Source: a virus
Taxonomy: Duplodnaviria > Heunggongvirae > Uroviricota > Caudoviricetes
Strand: one strand, 5' to 3'
IMG/VR virus record: IMGVR_UViG_2698536372_000004
Length of the DNA stretch: 17,131 nucleotides
In this document: one piece after another, positions 269 through 8,155 of the stretch
Layout of the letters: the number at the start of each line of letters is the position of its first letter
Numbering within the stretch: the first letter of the stretch is position 1
Translations under genes and position numbers: made by a program
Notes under the pieces: generated by a model
Told to the model about the DNA's origin: nothing
The model's database searches: none
Seen by the model: only the letters and a program-made list of their open reading frames with translations

Positions 269-550
269 TTAGCTATTAATCTTCACTTTTATCGCGAACA
301 CCTTTACCGGTTTATCACCGAAGTGTGGATGTGTGATTGTTTTTATTTCATATCCGTTATACGGGACGTCAATTCTGCGACTGAAGTCTTCGCGCTTCGG
401 ATATCCCTTTGTGATAATCAGGCGGTCATACTTACAGTTAACGAGGCGCTTATTCCAGTAGTCATTACACAGGCGATACTCTTCCGTTTTCTCCCCGCGA
501 ATCATGGCATCGAAGTATTCACCTTTAACGGCAAGTTGCAGGTTAGCCAT
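269..550 (-). CDS. ASCH/PUA-like domain protein
   Basis: N-terminal motif LAVKGEYFDAMIRGEKTEEYR matches the ASCH pattern (Y/F-x-x-I-x-x-G-x-K-T-x-E-x-R). Likely start is ATG 550..548 (MANLQL), overlapping the upstream stop as TAATG, with a GGAGGTGAGG RBS. Confidence 0.6.
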   Translation of the reverse strand: MANLQLAVKGEYFDAMIRGEKTEEYRLCNDYWNKRLVNCKYDRLIITKGYPKREDFSRRIDVPYNGYEIKTITHPHFGDKPVKVFAIKVKINS

Positions 551-810
551 TACCTCACCTCCAGTCTCCATACCGCCTGACCAATCCGGCTGGCATGGGT
601 ATCTTTGGATACTGTTCCGTCTTTAGCCAGCTCCATAAGAATTTTGCGCAAATCTGCCGAACGCCATTCTTCATCAGGAAATTCCTTCTCCATTGCCAAC
701 CGCAGATTCCAGGTTGCCATCCTGAATGGATATTCCCCGCCGAGAGCTTTATCTTGCAGGGCAGCCCGGGAACGCATCACCTGCAAAACCTTCTCTTTTA
801 CATCCATCAT
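550..810 (-). CDS. Hypothetical small protein, possible winged-helix fold
   Basis: Track ORF 550..954 trimmed to the internal ATG at 810..808, which overlaps the upstream DUF551 stop as ATGA and follows an AGGAGG RBS. C-terminal LRKILMELAKDGTVSK...RIGQAVWRL looks wHTH-like; weak call. Confidence 0.4.
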   Translation of the reverse strand: MMDVKEKVLQVMRSRAALQDKALGGEYPFRMATWNLRLAMEKEFPDEEWRSADLRKILMELAKDGTVSKDTHASRIGQAVWRLEVR

Positions 811-1433
811 TTCGCCTCCTGCGGCGGTTCTGGTAGCGGCATCCAGAACAAGGCGTTCCCTAACCACGATAAAGTGCCGTCGCTCAACTCCACGTATTCC
901 CCTTGTACCTGTCCTGCCATATACTCGCCGTGCTTTGAATAAATTAAAATCCAATCATCTTGAGGTGGCATTCGCTCACTACAGCTTATCCAACCATCCG
1001 GAGTTACCGGAGAGTTGCCGGGTTCTTTAATGTGCAAGCGAGGCTCACCATCTTTTGGTTCAGGCCACTGGCGCTTCATGTTGATCTTCAATTTATCTTC
1101 CATAGCAGCGGTAATTTCAGCATCGCTGATGCCAGCACGGCGCTGTGCATCCCACAACAGAAACTGCATATCAGCCCACTCGCCAAGATCGTCTGGTTCG
1201 GCTGCGGCTTCCAGTGCCTCTTTTGAGAGATGTTTCAGCGGACCAATGGGGCCAACGCAGCCAAATGTGGAGTCAGACCATTTGGCATGCTCGTGGCGAA
1301 TCTGTTCGCGTTCCAGTGATGCCAGTGCAATTCGTGCCAGCTCACGAATCTCACCGCCGTCTATATCGTCAATGTCATCACGGCCATAAATGTTAGCCAG
1401 CCATTGCAGTCGCTCTTTGGTAATAGTGATCAT
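807..1433 (-). CDS. DUF551-family phage protein
   Basis: C-terminal WISCSERMPP...WILIY...FWMPLPEPP is the characteristic DUF551 signature. Start overlaps the upstream stop (ATGA). Confidence 0.7.
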   Translation of the reverse strand: MITITKERLQWLANIYGRDDIDDIDGGEIRELARIALASLEREQIRHEHAKWSDSTFGCVGPIGPLKHLSKEALEAAAEPDDLGEWADMQFLLWDAQRRAGISDAEITAAMEDKLKINMKRQWPEPKDGEPRLHIKEPGNSPVTPDGWISCSERMPPQDDWILIYSKHGEYMAGQVQGEYVELSDGTLSWLGNALFWMPLPEPPQEAK

Positions 1434-1945
1434 GCCGCGTTTCCTTCTTTCTTATTAACAATTACACCGTCATATATTTCATTAAGGTGCCCTCTCAACT
1501 CCATGCGCCTTAATGCAGACAACATGTAATCGCATTCAACCTGCTTATTCCCAATAAAAGGTTTATCTTCAGGGTTACCCCAACAGCAATTCCCCTTGGG
1601 CCATCCATGTACTTTCCGTACTCTTCCGTTAACAACGTGAAGTAATCCCCAGCCAGGTGGTAAATCCTCAATTGAAATAATTCCCGGCTCACTAATAAAG
1701 AATCGCCAGTCGCCCATTCCAAGAGACGGATTTTTACGAAAACGCTTTTTTCTATCTGCCAACAAGTCAGCACGAGAACATTTCGCCTCTATCAGGCATG
1801 ATGCTGAATTTCTGAATCCCATAGCATCTGGCTGTTCTCCGGTACTGGTTACAGCTATAAAGCGGTCATGAAAACAAACCTTGAACCCGTTGCGCTTAAG
1901 GAACTTGTACGCAATCTGACAGAGTTCGCGGTGTGTTAACGCCAT
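1430..1945 (-). CDS. MmcB-like PD-(D/E)xK nuclease-fold protein
   Basis: Motif QPDAMGF...CLIEAKCSRADL fits PD-(D/E)xK with the E-x-K-x-S-R-x-D pattern of MmcB-like proteins. Confidence 0.55.
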   Translation of the reverse strand: MALTHRELCQIAYKFLKRNGFKVCFHDRFIAVTSTGEQPDAMGFRNSASCLIEAKCSRADLLADRKKRFRKNPSLGMGDWRFFISEPGIISIEDLPPGWGLLHVVNGRVRKVHGWPKGNCCWGNPEDKPFIGNKQVECDYMLSALRRMELRGHLNEIYDGVIVNKKEGNAA

Positions 1946-1946
1946 A

Positions 1947-2759
1947 TCACTCTCCTTTGATGCGAATGCCAGCGGCGCGGATTGCAGCGATGACTTCAGA
2001 AACTTTGTATGCCATTACCGTTTGGTAATCATCGTGATAATCTGTTCGATGAAGCATGCTGCTACGTTCCGGGAGCGATATTTCCCGAGCATCCAGTTCC
2101 TTAACGCGTTCCTCCAGTTCGTAGACCCTGCATTGTTCTCTATCATCAATCAGATATAACCCAAGACATTCGCTTTCTACCCAACCGCCAAAATCATGAT
2201 CGTAACGCTCACATGAAAACTCACCGTCACCGTCCTTTGTTGGAATGGTGTAACTATCTAATGGGCCACCATATGTCGGCACATTCCCCAATGTTGGATG
2301 CTCAATCCACATGAAAAATGCACGTCCGGTTATTGGGCAAATATCTGGCCGCCATTGGTTACGAACAGCCTTGGTTTCGGATAATTCTTCAGCGTGTTGT
2401 TTTACTTCCTCAAGCTCAACTCTCAGCTTCCCAACCGTAAGAGCAATATCCTCGTTCTCCTGGTCGCGGCGTTTGATGTATTGCTGGTTTCTTTCCCGTT
2501 CATCCAGCAGTGCCAGCACGGTAGCCGGATTGGCCTCTGCTATGAATTCAGCGTTTGCATAAGCCTGAGCATCTGTTTCAACCAGGCAGTTAACGTGACA
2601 TTCTGCAATTACGCCACCGGGTTCTCCTTTCCATTTTTGACAAACAAAAACTCCTGTTAAATTGCCGTGCTGGTTAACAGATGTATGCCCTACGATGTAG
2701 CTTCCTTTAGTTGCTTTCTCTGCCTTTTCACGCAGTGCCTGAAAGTCAATCTTGCTCAC
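1947..2759 (-). CDS. Ead/Ea22-like protein
   Basis: N-terminus SKIDFQALREKAEKATKG and ANPATVLALLDE match the Ead/Ea22 family of lambdoid early-left regions. Probable GTG start at 2759..2757 (RBS GGAGG 6 nt upstream), overlapping the upstream stop as GTGA; the track ORF extends to 2792. Confidence 0.6.
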   Translation of the reverse strand: MSKIDFQALREKAEKATKGSYIVGHTSVNQHGNLTGVFVCQKWKGEPGGVIAECHVNCLVETDAQAYANAEFIAEANPATVLALLDERERNQQYIKRRDQENEDIALTVGKLRVELEEVKQHAEELSETKAVRNQWRPDICPITGRAFFMWIEHPTLGNVPTYGGPLDSYTIPTKDGDGEFSCERYDHDFGGWVESECLGLYLIDDREQCRVYELEERVKELDAREISLPERSSMLHRTDYHDDYQTVMAYKVSEVIAAIRAAGIRIKGE

Positions 2760-3439
2760 TGGTTGCCTCCTTTGCGAAGCTGTTCCGCACAATGCAGCAG
2801 GGCGTCCGTCGCTTCTTTCACCGTAACGATGTCGCCATCGTCCAGCCCGACAACCGTCGCGTCCTTAACGAACACCGAGCAAAGGTCATTAAACGCCTGC
2901 GCCCGCACTTCAGCCAGGAAAGCGTCGGTGGCTGGCGTTTCCCGTGAACGATAAGACCAAACAATGTCGTCTGTTTCACTGGGTTCTTCATGAGAGCAAT
3001 TTGGGCAGACAGCAGTACAACCAGCATGATCTTCTATGAGCATCTTCAGCCACGAGTTCTCCTCCGCCAGCGTCACGCGACTGGCCTCCAGTTCTGCTAC
3101 GCGCTGTTTTGCAGCATCCAGTTCAATCGACAATTTTTCCAACTGCTCTTTATGCTTTTTATATTCCTGATATGCGTGCCAAGACTGACCTTTGCGCACA
3201 CTATCAGTGATATCAGCAACCTGCTCTGGTGTTAGCGTGGTCAGTGGCTGTGCTGGGAAAATAAGCACTTTCCCGGAATCCCAATCAAAACCAGCGTGAA
3301 TTGACTGAACCTCAACTGAGGGTGTTGAACCAATGCTGCCAGGCGAATGAACAACGATTGTTACATCCATATCGCGACGATGGCTGTGGTTGTTGGACAA
3401 AATACGATTCACCAACTCAGAAAATTTGGAAAATTTCAT
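2756..3439 (-). CDS. Ea22-like paralog with coiled-coil middle
   Basis: Shares the ETPATDAFLAE(V/I)RA segment and the C-terminal AEQ(L/I)RKG..Q with the gene at 3723..4316, at both protein and DNA level. ATGA overlap with the upstream gene. Confidence 0.5.
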   Translation of the reverse strand: MKFSKFSELVNRILSNNHSHRRDMDVTIVVHSPGSIGSTPSVEVQSIHAGFDWDSGKVLIFPAQPLTTLTPEQVADITDSVRKGQSWHAYQEYKKHKEQLEKLSIELDAAKQRVAELEASRVTLAEENSWLKMLIEDHAGCTAVCPNCSHEEPSETDDIVWSYRSRETPATDAFLAEVRAQAFNDLCSVFVKDATVVGLDDGDIVTVKEATDALLHCAEQLRKGGNQ

Positions 3440-3726
3440 GCTGATTCCCCTTTCTCTGCTCTCTCCTGTCGGAACATCACTATCATCAGGTCGCCTTTTG
3501 TCGCTATCCTAGCTGTTGTACCTGGTTCAATGCGGCTAAGCTCAAATGCGTCATAGAACGCTTCTAATGCCTTCTGGCGTAGTTCCTGTTTGCGCCGTTT
3601 TTTCCACTGTTTTAGGAAAATGGAACCCAGCCATCGCCATGTACGGGACATGATGAAAAGCCAACCGAGAAGTGCCAGACCGGTATTTAGGAGCGTATCG
3701 ATCGTTATTGTCGTGTCGATATTCAC
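3436..3726 (-). CDS. Small predicted membrane protein
   Basis: Hydrophobic helix TLLNTGLALLGWLFIM followed by a basic stretch (KQWKKRRKQELRQK). GTG at 3726..3724 with an AGGAAG RBS 6 nt upstream and GTGA overlap with the upstream stop is preferred over the unsupported ATG at 3759. Confidence 0.4.
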   Translation of the reverse strand: MNIDTTITIDTLLNTGLALLGWLFIMSRTWRWLGSIFLKQWKKRRKQELRQKALEAFYDAFELSRIEPGTTARIATKGDLMIVMFRQERAEKGESA

Positions 3727-4316
3727 TGGCTGCTTCCTTTGCGAATCTGTTCCGCCCATTCTTCAAGGGATTTCTCCGCATATTCACCAGACAGGCCATC
3801 AATCGGATGCGCTTCATTAGCCAACTCTTCTTTCGCTGACAAAATCATGCGTGTAACGTCGAAAACTTCACGCAAAGACTTATTGATAAATCCGTGATTG
3901 AACGCAGCAGCAAGACGGCTGGCGGTATAGTTAATCCCCTCGTTGCGTGCTTCCGCACGAATTTCAGCCAGAAAAGCATCGGTAGCTGGAGTTTCGCTGT
4001 GGTGTAGGGCATCGTTGATAATCATTGCAGCAACACCAGCCTGCCCTGCATCCGTGACCGACACATGCTCAAGAGTTACGGCCATTGCGTGTTTCAGTCC
4101 GGCGTTCTCTGCCACCAGCGCCGCGAGATTAGTCTCAAGCTCTGCAATACGGCACATAGCATCAATATTTGTGTCTTCCAGCCGCTTAATTTCATCCAGT
4201 AGTGCCAGTGCCACCGATGGCGTGAACGCCATACGAAACGCCACAAAATTTTGATGCATAGGTTCTGTTTCTACTGCAACTGCCGCATCTCGCAGTGCCT
4301 GATAGTCAATTGTCAT
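3723..4316 (-). CDS. Ead/Ea22-like protein
   Basis: TIDYQALRDAA and ALALLDE motifs plus the shared ETPATDAFLAEIRA segment. Likely start is ATG 4316..4314, overlapping the upstream stop (ATGA). Confidence 0.55.
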   Translation of the reverse strand: MTIDYQALRDAAVAVETEPMHQNFVAFRMAFTPSVALALLDEIKRLEDTNIDAMCRIAELETNLAALVAENAGLKHAMAVTLEHVSVTDAGQAGVAAMIINDALHHSETPATDAFLAEIRAEARNEGINYTASRLAAAFNHGFINKSLREVFDVTRMILSAKEELANEAHPIDGLSGEYAEKSLEEWAEQIRKGSSQ

Positions 4317-4957
4317 TCTCGCCATCCTTCACAGTTGTAATCACTACAGCCTTCAAAATCATATGGGCTGTACTGCCAGGTTATTTTTCCGCAATGCGGA
4401 CAATTCCAACGCACCTTCCCGCTTCGCGACTTCTTTCTTCTGTTCTGCTCTTTCAACCAGTCAGGCATGACCAAACCTGCGCCCTGAACCATTGTTCTGC
4501 GGTTAAAGTTATTGATATTGAACGTCCGACGCTTTGCTGCATCAGCAATGGAAAATGGCAACCAAACTATTCCTGGTTCGTTTTTGTTGGCGACGCTAAA
4601 GATGGTCGCTTTACTGAAGTCATCTGTTGGCAATCCACCGTGTTGAAGCCAGTAAACATCGTTGCCGTTCCAGCTACCTTTTTTGTAGGCCACATACGCA
4701 GTGCAATCTGACTCAATCAGGCTTTCTGTAGGGATGTACTGGCAATCAACGTGCCACACAGCCATTGCATCCACACTATCGGCACAAACAGGCTGATCGA
4801 TATCTCGCCCACAATTCCAGGCTTTTTGGGCTTCTTCCAGCGTGTAAACATGAGCGCGATCGATATCAGAACTGTAACCATTGCCGTTATGGCAATGGAA
4901 TGAGGCGTTATTACCCACAGTTTCACGCAAGCACATCATGTAAAAACGGTTACTCAC
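4313..4957 (-). CDS. Hypothetical protein with C-terminal Cys cluster (putative zinc ribbon)
   Basis: GTG start at 4957 with a GGGAGG RBS 6 nt upstream. C-terminus WNCPHCGKITWQYSPYDFEGCSDYNCEGW is a CxxC...C...C pattern. No family recognised. Confidence 0.45.
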   Translation of the reverse strand: MSNRFYMMCLRETVGNNASFHCHNGNGYSSDIDRAHVYTLEEAQKAWNCGRDIDQPVCADSVDAMAVWHVDCQYIPTESLIESDCTAYVAYKKGSWNGNDVYWLQHGGLPTDDFSKATIFSVANKNEPGIVWLPFSIADAAKRRTFNINNFNRRTMVQGAGLVMPDWLKEQNRRKKSRSGKVRWNCPHCGKITWQYSPYDFEGCSDYNCEGWRE

Positions 4958-5165
4958 TGGATGCCTCCCAGCAAATTTGTCTTATATAAGAACTGTTAAC
5001 GCGCTTTACTTTCCCGTCGAACTCCAGTTTCTTTAGACGACGCAAAACGTATGCCGTTTTGAGTGTGCGATATTTATCCCTAAGCCAGTTGGTCACGACG
5101 TAAGTCATACAGCGCCCGTGTTCTTCCAACACCCGAACTATTTCTTCGTCGGTTGGCTTGCTCAT
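4950..5165 (-). CDS. Small putative winged-helix DNA-binding protein
   Basis: 71 aa. The pattern CMTYVVTNWLRDKY...AYVLRRLKKLEFDGKVKRV resembles a wHTH recognition helix and wing. ATGA overlap with the upstream gene. Confidence 0.4.
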   Translation of the reverse strand: MSKPTDEEIVRVLEEHGRCMTYVVTNWLRDKYRTLKTAYVLRRLKKLEFDGKVKRVNSSYIRQICWEASSE

Positions 5166-5383
5166 TTTGTCGCTCCTTCAGCTTTCTCTACTTTCGCTGC
5201 CATGATTTCCAGCTTTTGTGCTGCCGATACCGCTAACCTGTGAAATTCTTCATCTGTTTCAACTGGAATTGGTACAAACCTGACACCAATTTGAGCAAGG
5301 CTATGCGCCATTTCGAGACTTGCTCTTAACTCTGCTGGGGATGCTTTATTCAGGCCGACTTCCTCACAAATAACTGATTGCAT
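5162..5383 (-). CDS. Hypothetical small protein
   Basis: 73-aa ORF in the operon frame with RBS AGGGCGAG before ATG 5383. No family recognised. Confidence 0.4.
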   Translation of the reverse strand: MQSVICEEVGLNKASPAELRASLEMAHSLAQIGVRFVPIPVETDEEFHRLAVSAAQKLEIMAAKVEKAEGATK

Positions 5384-5392
5384 ACGCTCGCC

Positions 5393-6118
5393 CTACTGAA
5401 TACGCTCAAACTCGATTACCCAAACCCAGGGATTAGCGCTCCAGCTTTCTTCGCCGTAGATGGATTCCCACAGGCGCTGGAACGCAACCTTGGCCATTGC
5501 GAAATCCCCCTTGGGAGTAAGGAATGTTCCCGGGTGATCAGGAAGCAAACTTCCAGCAGGCGGAACACCCTCATCCCTTGCATCGCATTCGCTGATATCG
5601 TTCAACCGCTCAACGCGCACGTTGGTAATTTCCAACAGGATGCGTGATGCCCATCGCGGCATGTGAATTGATGGACGCCACCCACCATCAAACTTTTCAT
5701 TCACAGTGTGAGGTTTCCAGTCGGCATCATCGGGTATCGACCATAAACCGTAATCACCAGGCTTTTGCTCACAACTGGCCCGATAAATCCTTGCTGCGTT
5801 CTTCTCATCGCCACGACAAAGGTTGTCGTTCCAGTCCACACTGCAACCATCTTCATTGCCTAATATCGCCCATGTTTCACGAACCCAAATTCGATCGCCG
5901 ACGATACCAAAGGGGCAATTGAAAACACTGCTTACACCATCAGCCCCGTACCACTGAAAACCTGCACCAATTTTTCTAACCATCACTGGTGCTTCTGGAC
6001 CAACTTCCGCAGGCTGATTTTTCATTATCCGCCGCGTCTGCGTTTTCCTTCCTTCGAGGATGGCCCGGACCATCTCATCGTTAAAAATCATGCCGCGCTT
6101 TTTCACTTCGCCTTTCAT
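5393..6118 (-). CDS. PUA/ASCH-like domain protein
   Basis: N-terminal MIFNDEMVRAILEGRKTQTRR followed by GDRIWVRETW fits the ASCH/PUA-like beta-barrel signature. RBS AAGGGGGA overlaps the stop of the upstream micro-ORF. Confidence 0.45.
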   Translation of the reverse strand: MKGEVKKRGMIFNDEMVRAILEGRKTQTRRIMKNQPAEVGPEAPVMVRKIGAGFQWYGADGVSSVFNCPFGIVGDRIWVRETWAILGNEDGCSVDWNDNLCRGDEKNAARIYRASCEQKPGDYGLWSIPDDADWKPHTVNEKFDGGWRPSIHMPRWASRILLEITNVRVERLNDISECDARDEGVPPAGSLLPDHPGTFLTPKGDFAMAKVAFQRLWESIYGEESWSANPWVWVIEFERIQ

Positions 6119-6127
6119 GCATCCCCC

Positions 6128-6214
6128 TTACCCATGTGCGACGATGCCGCCAAAAGTGATAGAGAACAGCCAGAAATAGATCGCGGCCATAATGATTTTG
6201 AATGCCGTGTTCAT
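6128..6214 (-). CDS. Unannotated 28-codon hydrophobic micro-ORF (MNTAFKIIMAAIYFWLFSITFGGIVAHG)
   Basis: Found by hand translation; below the ORF-track size cutoff. ATG 6214..6212 follows an AGGAG RBS at 8-nt spacing. Its TAA stop (6130..6128) sits inside the RBS of the next gene, suggesting coupled translation. One predicted transmembrane helix. Confidence 0.3.
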   Translation of the reverse strand: MNTAFKIIMAAIYFWLFSITFGGIVAHG

Positions 6215-6241
6215 ATTTTCAGCTCCTGTGATTGATTGGAT

Positions 6242-6273
6242 ACATGCCGCGCCTTGCGGCATGTTTTTATTTT
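6242..6273 (+). terminator. Plus-strand-oriented terminator-like hairpin inside the minus-strand operon
   Basis: ACATGCCGC - GCCTT - GCGGCATGT (9-bp stem) followed by TTTTTATTTT on the plus strand. In minus-strand sense an A-run precedes it and no U-run follows, so it is not a terminator for the operon that contains it. Confidence 0.45.
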
Positions 6274-6283
6274 CACTTTCTCT

Positions 6284-6313
6284 GTTTTAAAAATCAAGAT
6301 TTATTAGAGCAAT
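6284..6313. repeat. 30-bp repeat unit, copy A (GTTTTAAAAAT-N6-TTATTAGAGCAAT)
   Basis: 26 of 30 positions identical to copy B at 8425..8454. The 13-bp core TTATTAGAGCAAT is identical; its last base is the first base of the stop codon of the gene at 6313..6819. Confidence 0.8.
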
Positions 6314-6819
6314 TATTGTTGGTGGAGAAGCGCGTTTTCATACTCCCTGACCATTAACGTAAGTACGCCGTGACTCCTGAAAACACGCGCCACTTCAATC
6401 TTATCTTCCAGCGCGAACGCAATTTTACTTAGACCAATTTTCTTCAGGAGATCAATCTTTGCTGGACCGTCATTTCTGTCATCGGTGGCAGGACGCATAG
6501 ATAGCAAAGGCTCAGCCCCATTTGTTACGTGCTTACGCAACCAGGCTCGTGTTTTATCCCTGGCTATCTCACAGCGCCCGGTTACAAACCAGAGGGTGTA
6601 AATGCCGGACAACTGGCGCACCATATCAATAACTGGAGTGATGGGAGCATCAGTGTCACAGGCAAGGTTAAACTCGTTCCAGTGCTCTGTTAATGCACCT
6701 TTGCCAGGTGGTGGAAGTAAATGCAGCCTGTCTTCCGTTGCCTCTGATATCGTCCCATAAATATCTACTATGACGATGTACGGACGTTCCTGGTGTGCGT
6801 GTTTATTGAAAATACTCAA
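6313..6819 (-). CDS. HAD-fold protein resembling the T4 polynucleotide kinase 3'-phosphatase domain; motif I degenerate
   Basis: From recalled T4 Pnk sequence: CDTD..I.P, VTGR(C/E), TR.W and the block ending AL(E/D)D(K/R)..V..F...GV all align. Motif I is VDIYGT rather than DxDGT, so the second Asp is replaced by Tyr. Apparent TTG start at 6819 after a GAGGAGGG RBS. Confidence 0.5.
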   Translation of the reverse strand: MSIFNKHAHQERPYIVIVDIYGTISEATEDRLHLLPPPGKGALTEHWNEFNLACDTDAPITPVIDMVRQLSGIYTLWFVTGRCEIARDKTRAWLRKHVTNGAEPLLSMRPATDDRNDGPAKIDLLKKIGLSKIAFALEDKIEVARVFRSHGVLTLMVREYENALLHQQ

Positions 6820-6835
6820 ATGCCCTCCTCATTGG

Positions 6836-6872
6836 ACGAAAAAAATGCTGGTGGGCGCACTCCACCAGCATT
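6836..6872 (-). terminator. Intrinsic terminator within the minus-strand operon
   Basis: Perfect 11-bp stem (AATGCTGGTGG / CCACCAGCATT) with a 7-nt loop, followed in minus-strand sense by UUUUUUU. The next gene's RBS and start are only about 17 nt further on. Confidence 0.7.
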
Positions 6873-6891
6873 AAATGTGACACTGTAACTA

Positions 6892-8154
6892 TCAGCGAAC
6901 GTAAATAGTGCCGCCGTTCTCTTTTTCCCATGCATCGCTACGTGCATAGCAAACATCGAGAAGTCTTCTTGCCGCAGTTTCCTCTAAACCCAATTCAACA
7001 ACCAACTGCTCATGACGGCGGGTAACTACATCAAATAGGCTATGCAGCCCTTTATTGGCCAGTTCATCAATGAATTCCGGTTCGAACGGCAGCTCTGCCT
7101 CTGCCAACATAACCTCTTGCGCCCACTCAACTCGACGGACCAGTTCCGGGCGGCGGCTTTCCATCTCTTTACAGATCAATTCATGGAAGAACTCTACCCA
7201 ACCTTCCGGCTGGAACTCGCGGAAAATGGCCAGCGGCTGGAAGTTTGGCATCAACCATTCGTTGATTCGGATATCAATGGCATAGCCCATGTCGCAGCAG
7301 AACTGATAAGCAAAGTCCAGCTTAGAAACGATATAAGGACGCTCGTTATTGAACTCTTTAGGCGATGAGATCCCATAAGCCAGGAGGCGCGGGAAGAAGG
7401 AGATTTGCCCTAACGTCGGATGAAGTTTGCTTGCAGGGAAACGGCGCTCAGTAATGCCATACATTTCCTTCTTGAGCGTCGCAAATTTGGCATTCTCATT
7501 AACCAGCGCGGTAACCTCTGCTTTTTTATTAGCAAATGCCACGCGCGCTTCGCTTGCATCTTTAATAGTTTTTTTGAGCTGTTGGTTAAGGTCGGCGACC
7601 TGCTTACGCAGTTCCTGTCGCTCGCTTTTAGCTTTGTTATAGCGTTTCTCAAGGTTAAAAGGATCAAGTTTCATGATCTCTTTATATTGAGATTTTAGCG
7701 TTGAAATCTGTGAGTTCCGCAGTTCAACCATCGCGGTCATTTCATTGAGTTTTGTTTCCAGCTCAATGCTTATACGTTCGGCATTATCAGCACGCTGGTT
7801 GGCGTCATGCGTCGCATCGTCGATCGCGTCCTGTTGCTGGCGTTTCAAATGTTCAATTTGCAGCTGAAGCTCTTCAATTTCTTTACCCTTCAGACCGAGA
7901 TCCAACTGCATATTTTCAGCTGCATCTACCAGGGAGTTATGGCTATCAGCTTCTGCGTTATAAACATCAATAAGCTGTGCGTGAAGCATCTCCGCTGACT
8001 GAACCGCATTATCAAAAAAACGTGCTGTGAGGTCATCACAACTAACGCGGCGTTGCGCGGCCCGGATGTTCTGGATAATGGCCGGGATACCGGCATTCAG
8101 GACATCAGGGATAGATACATTTTCGATTGATTGGTTTTGTGCTGAAGTGCTCAT
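6892..8154 (-). CDS. Hypothetical 420-aa protein: N-terminal coiled coil, C-terminal globular domain of unknown function
   Basis: Residues ~40-230 are Q/E/K/L-rich with heptad character; the C-terminal ~190 aa match no motif I recognise. Start ATG at 8154 lies 1 nt after the upstream stop (TGAAATG). Confidence 0.55.
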   Translation of the reverse strand: MSTSAQNQSIENVSIPDVLNAGIPAIIQNIRAAQRRVSCDDLTARFFDNAVQSAEMLHAQLIDVYNAEADSHNSLVDAAENMQLDLGLKGKEIEELQLQIEHLKRQQQDAIDDATHDANQRADNAERISIELETKLNEMTAMVELRNSQISTLKSQYKEIMKLDPFNLEKRYNKAKSERQELRKQVADLNQQLKKTIKDASEARVAFANKKAEVTALVNENAKFATLKKEMYGITERRFPASKLHPTLGQISFFPRLLAYGISSPKEFNNERPYIVSKLDFAYQFCCDMGYAIDIRINEWLMPNFQPLAIFREFQPEGWVEFFHELICKEMESRRPELVRRVEWAQEVMLAEAELPFEPEFIDELANKGLHSLFDVVTRRHEQLVVELGLEETAARRLLDVCYARSDAWEKENGGTIYVR

Positions 8155-8155
8155 T

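Follow-up and report, generated by a model that had tools for sequence, protein, structure and literature searches.

What is encoded in the short interval between pap and the pmgT-like gene of a P1-like phage-plasmid, and what role does the hairpin in front of it play? We examined this in a 17,131-nt stretch of viral DNA, IMG/VR record IMGVR_UViG_2698536372_000004 (the window; all coordinates are relative to it), in which a 28-codon micro-open reading frame (micro-ORF) sits on the minus strand between pap (6313-6819, minus) and the pmgT-like gene (5393-6118, minus). The first-pass annotation of this DNA had proposed an unannotated hydrophobic peptide in the size and composition class of type I toxins, next to a terminator hairpin for a hypothetical antisense RNA. 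Our analysis points elsewhere. By its place behind an annotated C1 operator, the micro-ORF is the first cistron of the C1-repressed early operon Op88/PpmgT, as far as sequence can tell. On balance, and with moderate confidence, we favor the reading that the micro-ORF is a gene for a small membrane peptide, translated at the head of this Op88-controlled early operon, and that it hands its ribosomes to the cargo gene that follows.

The identity of the window was taken from megablast comparisons of positions 5900-6500. Phage P1 (NC_005856, 84106-84706) matches this segment at 97.8% identity, and P1 together with its relatives matches at 96-99%, so the window is assigned to a phage P1-like phage-plasmid. 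The same segment was also matched in 899 of 5,426 complete E. coli genomes, nearly always on plasmids. The micro-ORF and its translation signals are as follows.

6128-6214, minus strand: micro-ORF of 28 codons plus stop, encoding MNTAFKIIMAAIYFWLFSITFGGIVAHG (direct reading; ATG at 6214-6212, TAA at 6130-6128).
6223-6227, minus strand: AGGAG, the Shine-Dalgarno (SD) sequence of the micro-ORF, with 8 nt between it and the ATG; invariant, as is the ATG, in 80 pap-anchored loci.
6122-6130, minus strand: TAAGGGGGA, the micro-ORF stop codon merged with the SD sequence of the next gene, which is also the main mosaic junction (direct reading).

The good ribosome-binding site (RBS) described in the first pass was found as AGGAG at 6227-6223, and the stop codon does fall within the RBS of the next gene: TAA opens TAAGGGGGA, and the ATG of the pmgT-like gene lies 9 nt past the stop. 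This arrangement, common to 73 haplotypes, places the micro-ORF in a position suited to translational coupling, in line with the coupled layout that had been proposed. The peptide is hydrophobic along a 20-residue core, with a grand average of hydropathy (GRAVY) of 1.30 and one predicted transmembrane helix (I7-A26), which bears out its description as a single hydrophobic helix of 28 residues. A chance origin of the micro-ORF is unlikely. An SD sequence followed by an ATG and an ORF of at least 25 codons arose in 3.2% of 20,000 dinucleotide shuffles of the 194-nt spacer between the neighboring genes. When the ORF also had to end no more than 12 nt from the next start, the proportion was 0.4%; when it had instead to reach a GRAVY of at least 1.2, a single shuffle of the 20,000 remained.

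The statement that the micro-ORF is unannotated was correct for the P1 and P7 reference records and incorrect for others. A 44-aa version, starting at an ATG at 6262 within the hairpin, is annotated in SJ46 (J46_0098, "membrane protein"), in JL22 (gp98) and on some RefSeq plasmids (WP_001312275.1 and WP_029399105.1). As a candidate in its own right, a leaderless 44-aa ORF read from the predicted transcription start was rejected, as its frame is broken in relatives by two indels, a GG insertion and a 4-nt deletion. The 28-aa form is thus the conserved product, and the 44-aa annotations are probably over-extensions. No description of the micro-ORF and no mapped start site was found in the literature on pmgT, Op88 and P1 transcriptomes, a survey that did not cover the P1 genome paper.

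The control of the micro-ORF was read from the spacer upstream, where P1 coordinates were mapped through the position of the micro-ORF in P1 (84392-84475).

6297-6313, minus strand: C1 repressor operator Op88/OpmgT, ATTGCTCTAATAAATCT, a 17-mer identical to the annotated P1 C1 protein_bind site at 84293-84309.
6269-6297, minus strand: P1pmgT, a predicted sigma-70 promoter with -35 TTGATT (6297-6292), a 17-nt spacer and -10 GAAAAT (6274-6269), as predicted in the P1 record.
6284-6312, minus strand: P2pmgT, a predicted promoter with its -35 at 6312-6307 and its -10 at 6289-6284 (TTGCTC-17-TAAAAC), as predicted in the P1 record.

The final base of the pap stop codon is also part of the operator, and binding of C1 at Op88 is taken from the annotation of the P1 record. 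Of the two predicted promoters, P1pmgT adjoins the operator, and P2pmgT overlaps it. TTGATT-17-GAAAAT was recovered independently by a relaxed promoter scan with 8/12 matches. Transcription from it is predicted to start near 6262, some 7 nt past the -10 and on the first bases of the hairpin; if P2pmgT were used instead, the hairpin would begin about 13 nt into the transcript. With an operator and predicted promoters in the spacer, the micro-ORF heads a C1-controlled operon and is not a free-standing gene, and the pmgT promoter would by inference be silent in the prophage state. The only promoter-like site of the region to reach 9/12 matches is ATGAAA-18-AATAAT (6312-6341, minus), inside the 3' end of pap; its -10, AATAAT (6317-6312), shares the first two operator bases (6313-6312). 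This site could be an alternative C1-controlled promoter with its start inside the operator.

To follow the frame through related DNA, relatives were gathered without selecting on the ORF: 80 IMG/VR loci were reached through Pap, and further loci were obtained from viral, metagenome and species-representative genome collections by an exact 30-mer in the leader between the hairpin and the SD sequence. The loci with enough flanking sequence numbered 220, corresponding to 117 distinct 687-nt haplotypes; species-representative genomes contributed 2 loci, both from Escherichia. The first-pass annotation had made its coding claim depend on conservation of the frame in relatives, and the 28-codon ATG frame was found intact in 217 of the 220 loci, with no frameshift or nonsense change in any of the loci or haplotypes. 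The three disrupted loci comprise one IS1 insertion at codon 2/3 and two recombinant truncations after codon 19. Among the 80 Pap-anchored loci, the 84-nt ORF is free of indels, whereas four indel events fall in the roughly 115 nt of non-coding DNA that flank it: GG is inserted in the hairpin loop, 4 nt (6235-6238) are deleted, and +A and +G occur just after the stop. With tblastn, the micro-ORF was found in 873 PLSDB plasmids and 19 phage records, and nearly all of the PLSDB matches were at least 88% identical.

Under the reading that we favor, expression would proceed as follows. When C1 repression is lifted by infection or induction, transcription would begin about 50-65 nt upstream of the ATG, and the GC hairpin would stand at or beside the 5' end of the mRNA as a protective stem-loop; 5'-terminal hairpins protect E. 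coli mRNAs from decay. Ribosomes would load at AGGAG-8 nt-AUG and produce a 28-residue single-pass membrane peptide, whose N-terminus with K6 would be directed towards the cytoplasm by the positive-inside rule. The UAA within the next SD sequence, 9 nt before the AUG, would then couple translation of whichever cargo gene follows. The module of operator, promoter, hairpin, SD sequence and micro-ORF is the conserved "head" to which a highly variable cargo region is attached.

The second part of our question concerns the hairpin, which lies between the predicted -10 and the SD sequence.

6242-6264, both strands: GC-rich hairpin of 9-10 bp (9 plus a closing wobble on the plus strand; 6 GC) with a 3-5 nt loop (folding).
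6265-6273, plus strand: T-run TTTTTATTT after the hairpin, the complement of the P1pmgT A-tract and -10 region (direct reading).

On the plus strand, TTTTTATTTT comes after the hairpin; on the minus strand, AUCCAAUCAAUC does. Folding gives -16.3 kcal/mol for both strands (z about -4), and the hairpin is present in P1 and essentially all relatives. The form of an intrinsic terminator, a GC-rich stem-loop directly before a U-tract, is present on the plus strand and no U-tract is present on the minus strand, so the claim of an opposite-strand terminator holds for a terminator-like hairpin located 27 nt upstream of the micro-ORF ATG on the antisense strand. It had been overlooked that the plus-strand T-run is the complement of the predicted minus-strand -10 and A-tract. 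Single transitions in the stem preserve pairing as a wobble in 3 events when read as mRNA and in 1 event when read as plus-strand RNA, so the two strands are not distinguished by them.

No plus-strand gene or promoter that would feed this terminator is evident in the window. In hsd-type relatives, a convergent hsdR ends about 195 nt upstream of the hairpin on the plus strand, and in the hsd-context locus the hairpin is the sole terminator-like site after the hsdR stop on the hsdR strand; together with the T-run, it is the only canonical intrinsic terminator that faces the cargo region. In the hsd-bearing relatives, about one in three, hsdR transcripts most probably terminate at the hairpin, which would keep antisense transcription out of pap and pmgS, and such transcripts would cross the micro-ORF in antisense before stopping at the hairpin. 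One natural variant, C6256U (mRNA sense), retains a G.U pair in the mRNA and forms an A.C mismatch in plus-strand RNA, with stem energies of -14.2 and -11.7 kcal/mol, respectively. It occurs in 31/161 pmgT-type loci vs 2/68 loci with a convergent hsdR. This skew is suggestive of a plus-strand terminator role in the hsd type, but it may be a lineage effect. We infer that the hairpin serves both strands, as the 5' stem-loop of the early mRNA and as an insulator against transcription from the cargo region. A bolder version of this idea, in which the peptide is a conserved early-lytic small membrane protein (e.g., one that modulates a host inner-membrane protein or the membrane potential) whose dosage is set on both strands by the one hairpin, as mRNA 5' stabilizer and as antisense end point, seems improbable to us; the antisense RNA could be a weak internal plus-strand RNA or, in elements with a restriction cassette, hsdR read-through.

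A further property of the leader was noted. Directly 3' of the hairpin, CAUGUAUCC (6238-6246, minus) is complementary to GGAUGCAUG (6116-6124) over 9 bp with one G.U pair, and GGAUGCAUG spans the end of the SD sequence and the start codon of the pmgT-like gene. In folding predictions, the pmgT SD sequence pairs with 6246-6238 and has an unpaired probability of 0.04-0.33, which varies with the assumed 5' end. This pairing could act as a coupling switch, a role that the natural A6241U variant of P1 does not support, as it breaks the pairing without compensation.

What follows the micro-ORF changes from element to element. The start of a pmgT-like gene follows in 73 haplotypes, a convergent type IC hsdR in 38, and other contexts in a few. 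The commonest homology break lies directly after TAAGGGG, where homology to the window ends in 72 loci; further break points lie about 175 nt past the pmgT ATG and at the end of pmgT. Rare protein-database variants that have lost the stop continue into unrelated sequence (AHGY...), and one of them is joined to a DUF551 fragment. According to the P1 record, homology links P1 84399-84482 and 84263-84482 with sequences that lie downstream of the hsd loci of R124/3 and EcoDXXI. A passage of PMC12707154 cites Tyndall et al. 1997 (Mol Microbiol 23:729) on the P1-derived flanks of type IC hsd loci, and in PMC9603915, in the part that treats this region, pmgT to humD is described as variable region 8 of P1-like phage-plasmids. 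The micro-ORF junction agrees with the hsd notes of the P1 record, with the Tyndall et al. citation and with variable region 8, of which the pmgT-like gene is the first gene.

In the window, the cargo behind the pmgT-like gene (269-5383, minus) consists of lambdoid accessory genes. Their products include two Ead/Ea22-like proteins, one protein that combines DUF551 with a dATP/dGTP pyrophosphohydrolase, and DUF1382 and DUF4752 proteins, and the P1 set upfM-hot-lxr-humD is absent from it. The layout of the window cargo resembles the "hea operon" of the P7 record. Beyond the intact copies, about 324 larger PLSDB plasmids share a truncated tblastn match covering peptide residues 2-28. In the case examined, NZ_CP018111.1 (an IncFIA/IncR plasmid), IS1 is inserted at codon 2/3, codons 3-28 are kept, and the relic adjoins a convergent type IC hsdR (L004 3235-4003). 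This suggests that the IS1-cut copies are relics of P1 origin carried along with the restriction locus.

How firmly a functional peptide can be claimed depends on the selection that acts on it, and here several observations weigh against the reading we favor. The pmgT promoter hexamers are weak (8/12 matches) and are predictions only, and the relatives contain no compensatory (double) changes in the hairpin. Variable sites at codon positions 1, 2 and 3 number 4:5:6 in the micro-ORF vs 18:6:48 in pap. Pooled distinct events amount to about 12 replacement and 8 synonymous changes, below the neutral ratio of about 3:1 by an amount that is not significant (P about 0.09, a rough binomial estimate by hand). 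In the convergent hsd context, replacements are frequent (G23S in 13/38 haplotypes, A10T in 9/38, G28R in 6/38), and N2S, S18F, A4V, T20I, G22D and G23D are also found there. Neither a word-indexed search nor an exhaustive phmmer comparison with 1.84 billion representative proteins gave homologues beyond P1-like elements, and with only near-identical P1-type sequences at hand, tests of deep conservation or of a distant ratio of non-synonymous to synonymous substitution (dN/dS) are impossible. Neither the 28-aa nor the 44-aa form matched NCBIfam, Pfam or PADLOC, and PHROGs returned one non-significant match (E = 0.16). The truncated copies are highly identical, so DNA identity alone is no proof of selection or function. 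The downstream partners are variable and apparently cytosolic and give no clue to a membrane target of the peptide. Amino-acid-level constraint on the peptide is only weakly shown.

The main rival explanation is that the micro-ORF is a translated but functionless stub or leader, either a remnant (e.g., the signal-anchor end of a former first gene, severed by cassette exchange at the mosaic junction) or a fortuitous frame, which persists inside a reused promoter-leader module and may still deliver ribosomes to the next RBS while the peptide itself is inert. The end of the ORF coincides exactly with the main recombination junction, and the stop-loss variants run on into AHGY..., in one case as the DUF551 fusion. 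The missing third-position bias, the tolerated helix replacements G22D, G23D and L16Q, the orphan status without distant homologues, and the IS1-cut relic that is equally conserved at the DNA level all fit it as well. However, neither the word-indexed search nor phmmer found a longer ancestral protein with the MNTAFKIIMAAIYFWLFSITFGGIVAHG N-terminus, the stop (TAA or TAG) is kept over at least three unrelated downstream contexts, and the absence of indels from the ORF stands against four events in the adjacent non-coding DNA. Hydrophobicity of transmembrane grade is also very improbable by chance. The distribution of replacements also speaks against this rival: where the downstream gene is co-directional, the peptide is identical in 70/73 haplotypes and the three replacements (A11S, L16Q and G22C) are each singletons, yet the synonymous site at A26 is polymorphic in 31/73 of the same haplotypes. 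This pattern fits purifying selection in the intact operon and relaxation once it is decapitated, although the ratios of replacement to synonymous changes in the two contexts, 3:4 (co-directional) and 9:7 (hsd), are not significantly different and haplotypes are non-independent. Overall, we regard the inert stub as rather unlikely, while giving it more credit than any of the other rivals.

It is also conceivable, though we hold it very unlikely, that the micro-ORF is not translated at all and that the open frame is incidental to a conserved non-coding leader or a recombination boundary. Nucleotide diversity (pi) is uniformly low across hairpin, leader and ORF, about 0.018 vs 0.047 in pap, and together with the lack of codon periodicity this would correspond to nucleotide-level conservation or to recent homogenization by recombination. 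On the other side, the ATG, the stop and AGGAG with its 8-nt spacing do not vary or are retained, the signals and the hydrophobicity are jointly expected by chance about once in 20,000 shuffles, and no frame break was found in the 117 haplotypes, whereas the 5' extension contains frame-breaking indels. The least probable of the readings, in our judgment, is the one from the first pass: a membrane toxin or modulator that is repressed by a short plus-strand RNA, which would arise within the ORF, end at 6242-6273 and cover the SD sequence and start codon. The 28 residues and GRAVY of 1.30 suit the type I toxin class (membrane peptides of less than 60 aa), and the terminator upstream of the ATG is a good one on the antisense strand. 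A plus-strand CATAAT (6188-6193), about 75 nt upstream of the terminator end, is invariant in relatives, and hsdR read-through in hsd-bearing relatives would give antisense RNA over the ORF. However, the first pass had seen no convincing plus-strand promoter by eye, and our scan likewise gave no sigma-70-like plus-strand promoter of at least 9/12 from 3166 to the hairpin (6242), with the limit that weak promoters escape such scans; CATAAT, the best candidate, has a poor -35 (3/6 at 15 or 19 nt) and no TG extension. The fold of the 184-nt mRNA of leader plus ORF is ordinary (z -1.4), unlike that of hok, ldr or tisB mRNAs, and the near-ideal RBS is accessible, with an unpaired probability of about 0.5 in the start region. 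The ORF is moreover coupled to a downstream gene and not monocistronic. Control by C1 implies silence in the prophage, which is the wrong logic for an addiction-type toxin, and P1 already carries phd-doc, 3.5 kb away in the P1 record. In positions 5800-6700, an Rfam search at E<=10 matched nothing but GcvB, below threshold and on the terminator (20.3 bits vs a gathering cutoff of 42), and psRNA6, a meaningless hit, and no similarity to a toxin or antitoxin family was found in Rfam, Pfam, NCBIfam or PADLOC. The toxin and OOP-like interpretation is therefore not supported, and the locus should not be taken to indicate a new class of toxin-antitoxin or antisense regulation.

The wider neighborhood is consistent in orientation, as the genes of the open reading frame list that are considered real are all on the minus strand from about 270 to 12,000. 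The two genes that flank the micro-ORF are the following.

6313-6819, minus strand: pap, 3'-phosphatase/polynucleotide-kinase-phosphatase-like (Pfam HAD_PNKP, E = 2e-9; name from the P1 annotation), conserved and upstream of the micro-ORF.
5393-6118, minus strand: PmgT-like protein of 241 aa with its ATG at 6118 (PHROG 874; RefSeq label ASCH domain-containing), the second cistron.

The genes pmgS and pap are separated by a strong intrinsic terminator (11-bp stem, then TTTTT) at 6844-6872 (minus), which makes simple co-transcription of the two improbable. Farther away, gene orientation changes at about 12004-12151, with minus-strand genes up to about 12004 and plus-strand genes from 12151, which implies a divergent promoter region.

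In summary, the micro-ORF is a modest, uncharacterized small-gene candidate in a classical model phage and widespread phage-plasmid, and about one-sixth of complete E. coli genomes carry the stretch. If the favored reading is true, a conserved, probably translated 28-residue membrane peptide adds a gene to the P1 map and corrects the 44-aa annotations that are spreading through databases. The module marks the left boundary of cargo swaps that bring in restriction systems and lambdoid accessory genes (resistance genes are found in other regions), and it may supply incoming cassettes with ready-made transcription and translation signals. As P1 is very well studied, the main value lies in its annotation and in understanding how the cargo hotspot is expressed.

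Among known systems outside P1, one parallel is kdpF, the small hydrophobic first cistron (29 aa) of kdpFABC; its product, KdpF, is a subunit in the membrane complex that the downstream genes encode. Each locus opens its operon with a peptide of about 28-29 residues and one helix, and in each the stop lies at or beside the start signals of the next gene. The two peptides have no sequence similarity, however, and the genes downstream of the micro-ORF are interchangeable and apparently cytosolic, so a KdpF-like subunit role is unlikely. The type I toxin-antitoxin systems (hok/sok, ldr/rdl, tisB/istR-1, ibs/sib, shoB/ohsC and zor/orz) share a small single-helix hydrophobic peptide with an opposite-strand terminator-like element near its 5' end. 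In contrast to them, the micro-ORF has no antisense promoter, no highly folded or processed toxin mRNA and no family similarity, is not monocistronic, and has a promoter that is repressor-controlled and not constitutive. The lambda OOP RNA offers a likeness in idea only, a short antisense RNA that stops at an intrinsic terminator in a phage early region; OOP is transcribed from a strong promoter of its own, pO, and lies across the 3' end of cII, whereas here no comparable promoter is present and the overlap would be at the 5' end.

The closest counterpart is the C1-controlled Op88/OpmgT operon of P1 itself, which has the same locus, 17-bp operator, spacer, hairpin and micro-ORF at 97.8% identity. 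The P1 and P7 reference records differ in leading from operator and promoter straight to pmgT or upf86.8, with the 28-codon ORF and the hairpin unlisted, and the cargo downstream in the window is partly other than that of P1 (lambdoid ea/nin-type genes). The flanks of the type IC hsd loci EcoDXXI and EcoR124 also correspond, as the micro-ORF and hairpin are the P1-homologous DNA placed "downstream of hsdR" in the P1 record. In the passages of the cited sources that deal with it, this DNA is treated as flanking homology or as a variable region, and not as a small gene with a dual-strand hairpin. For variable region 8, as delimited in that part of PMC9603915, the likeness is positional: the point at which cargo is exchanged is the stop codon of the micro-ORF.

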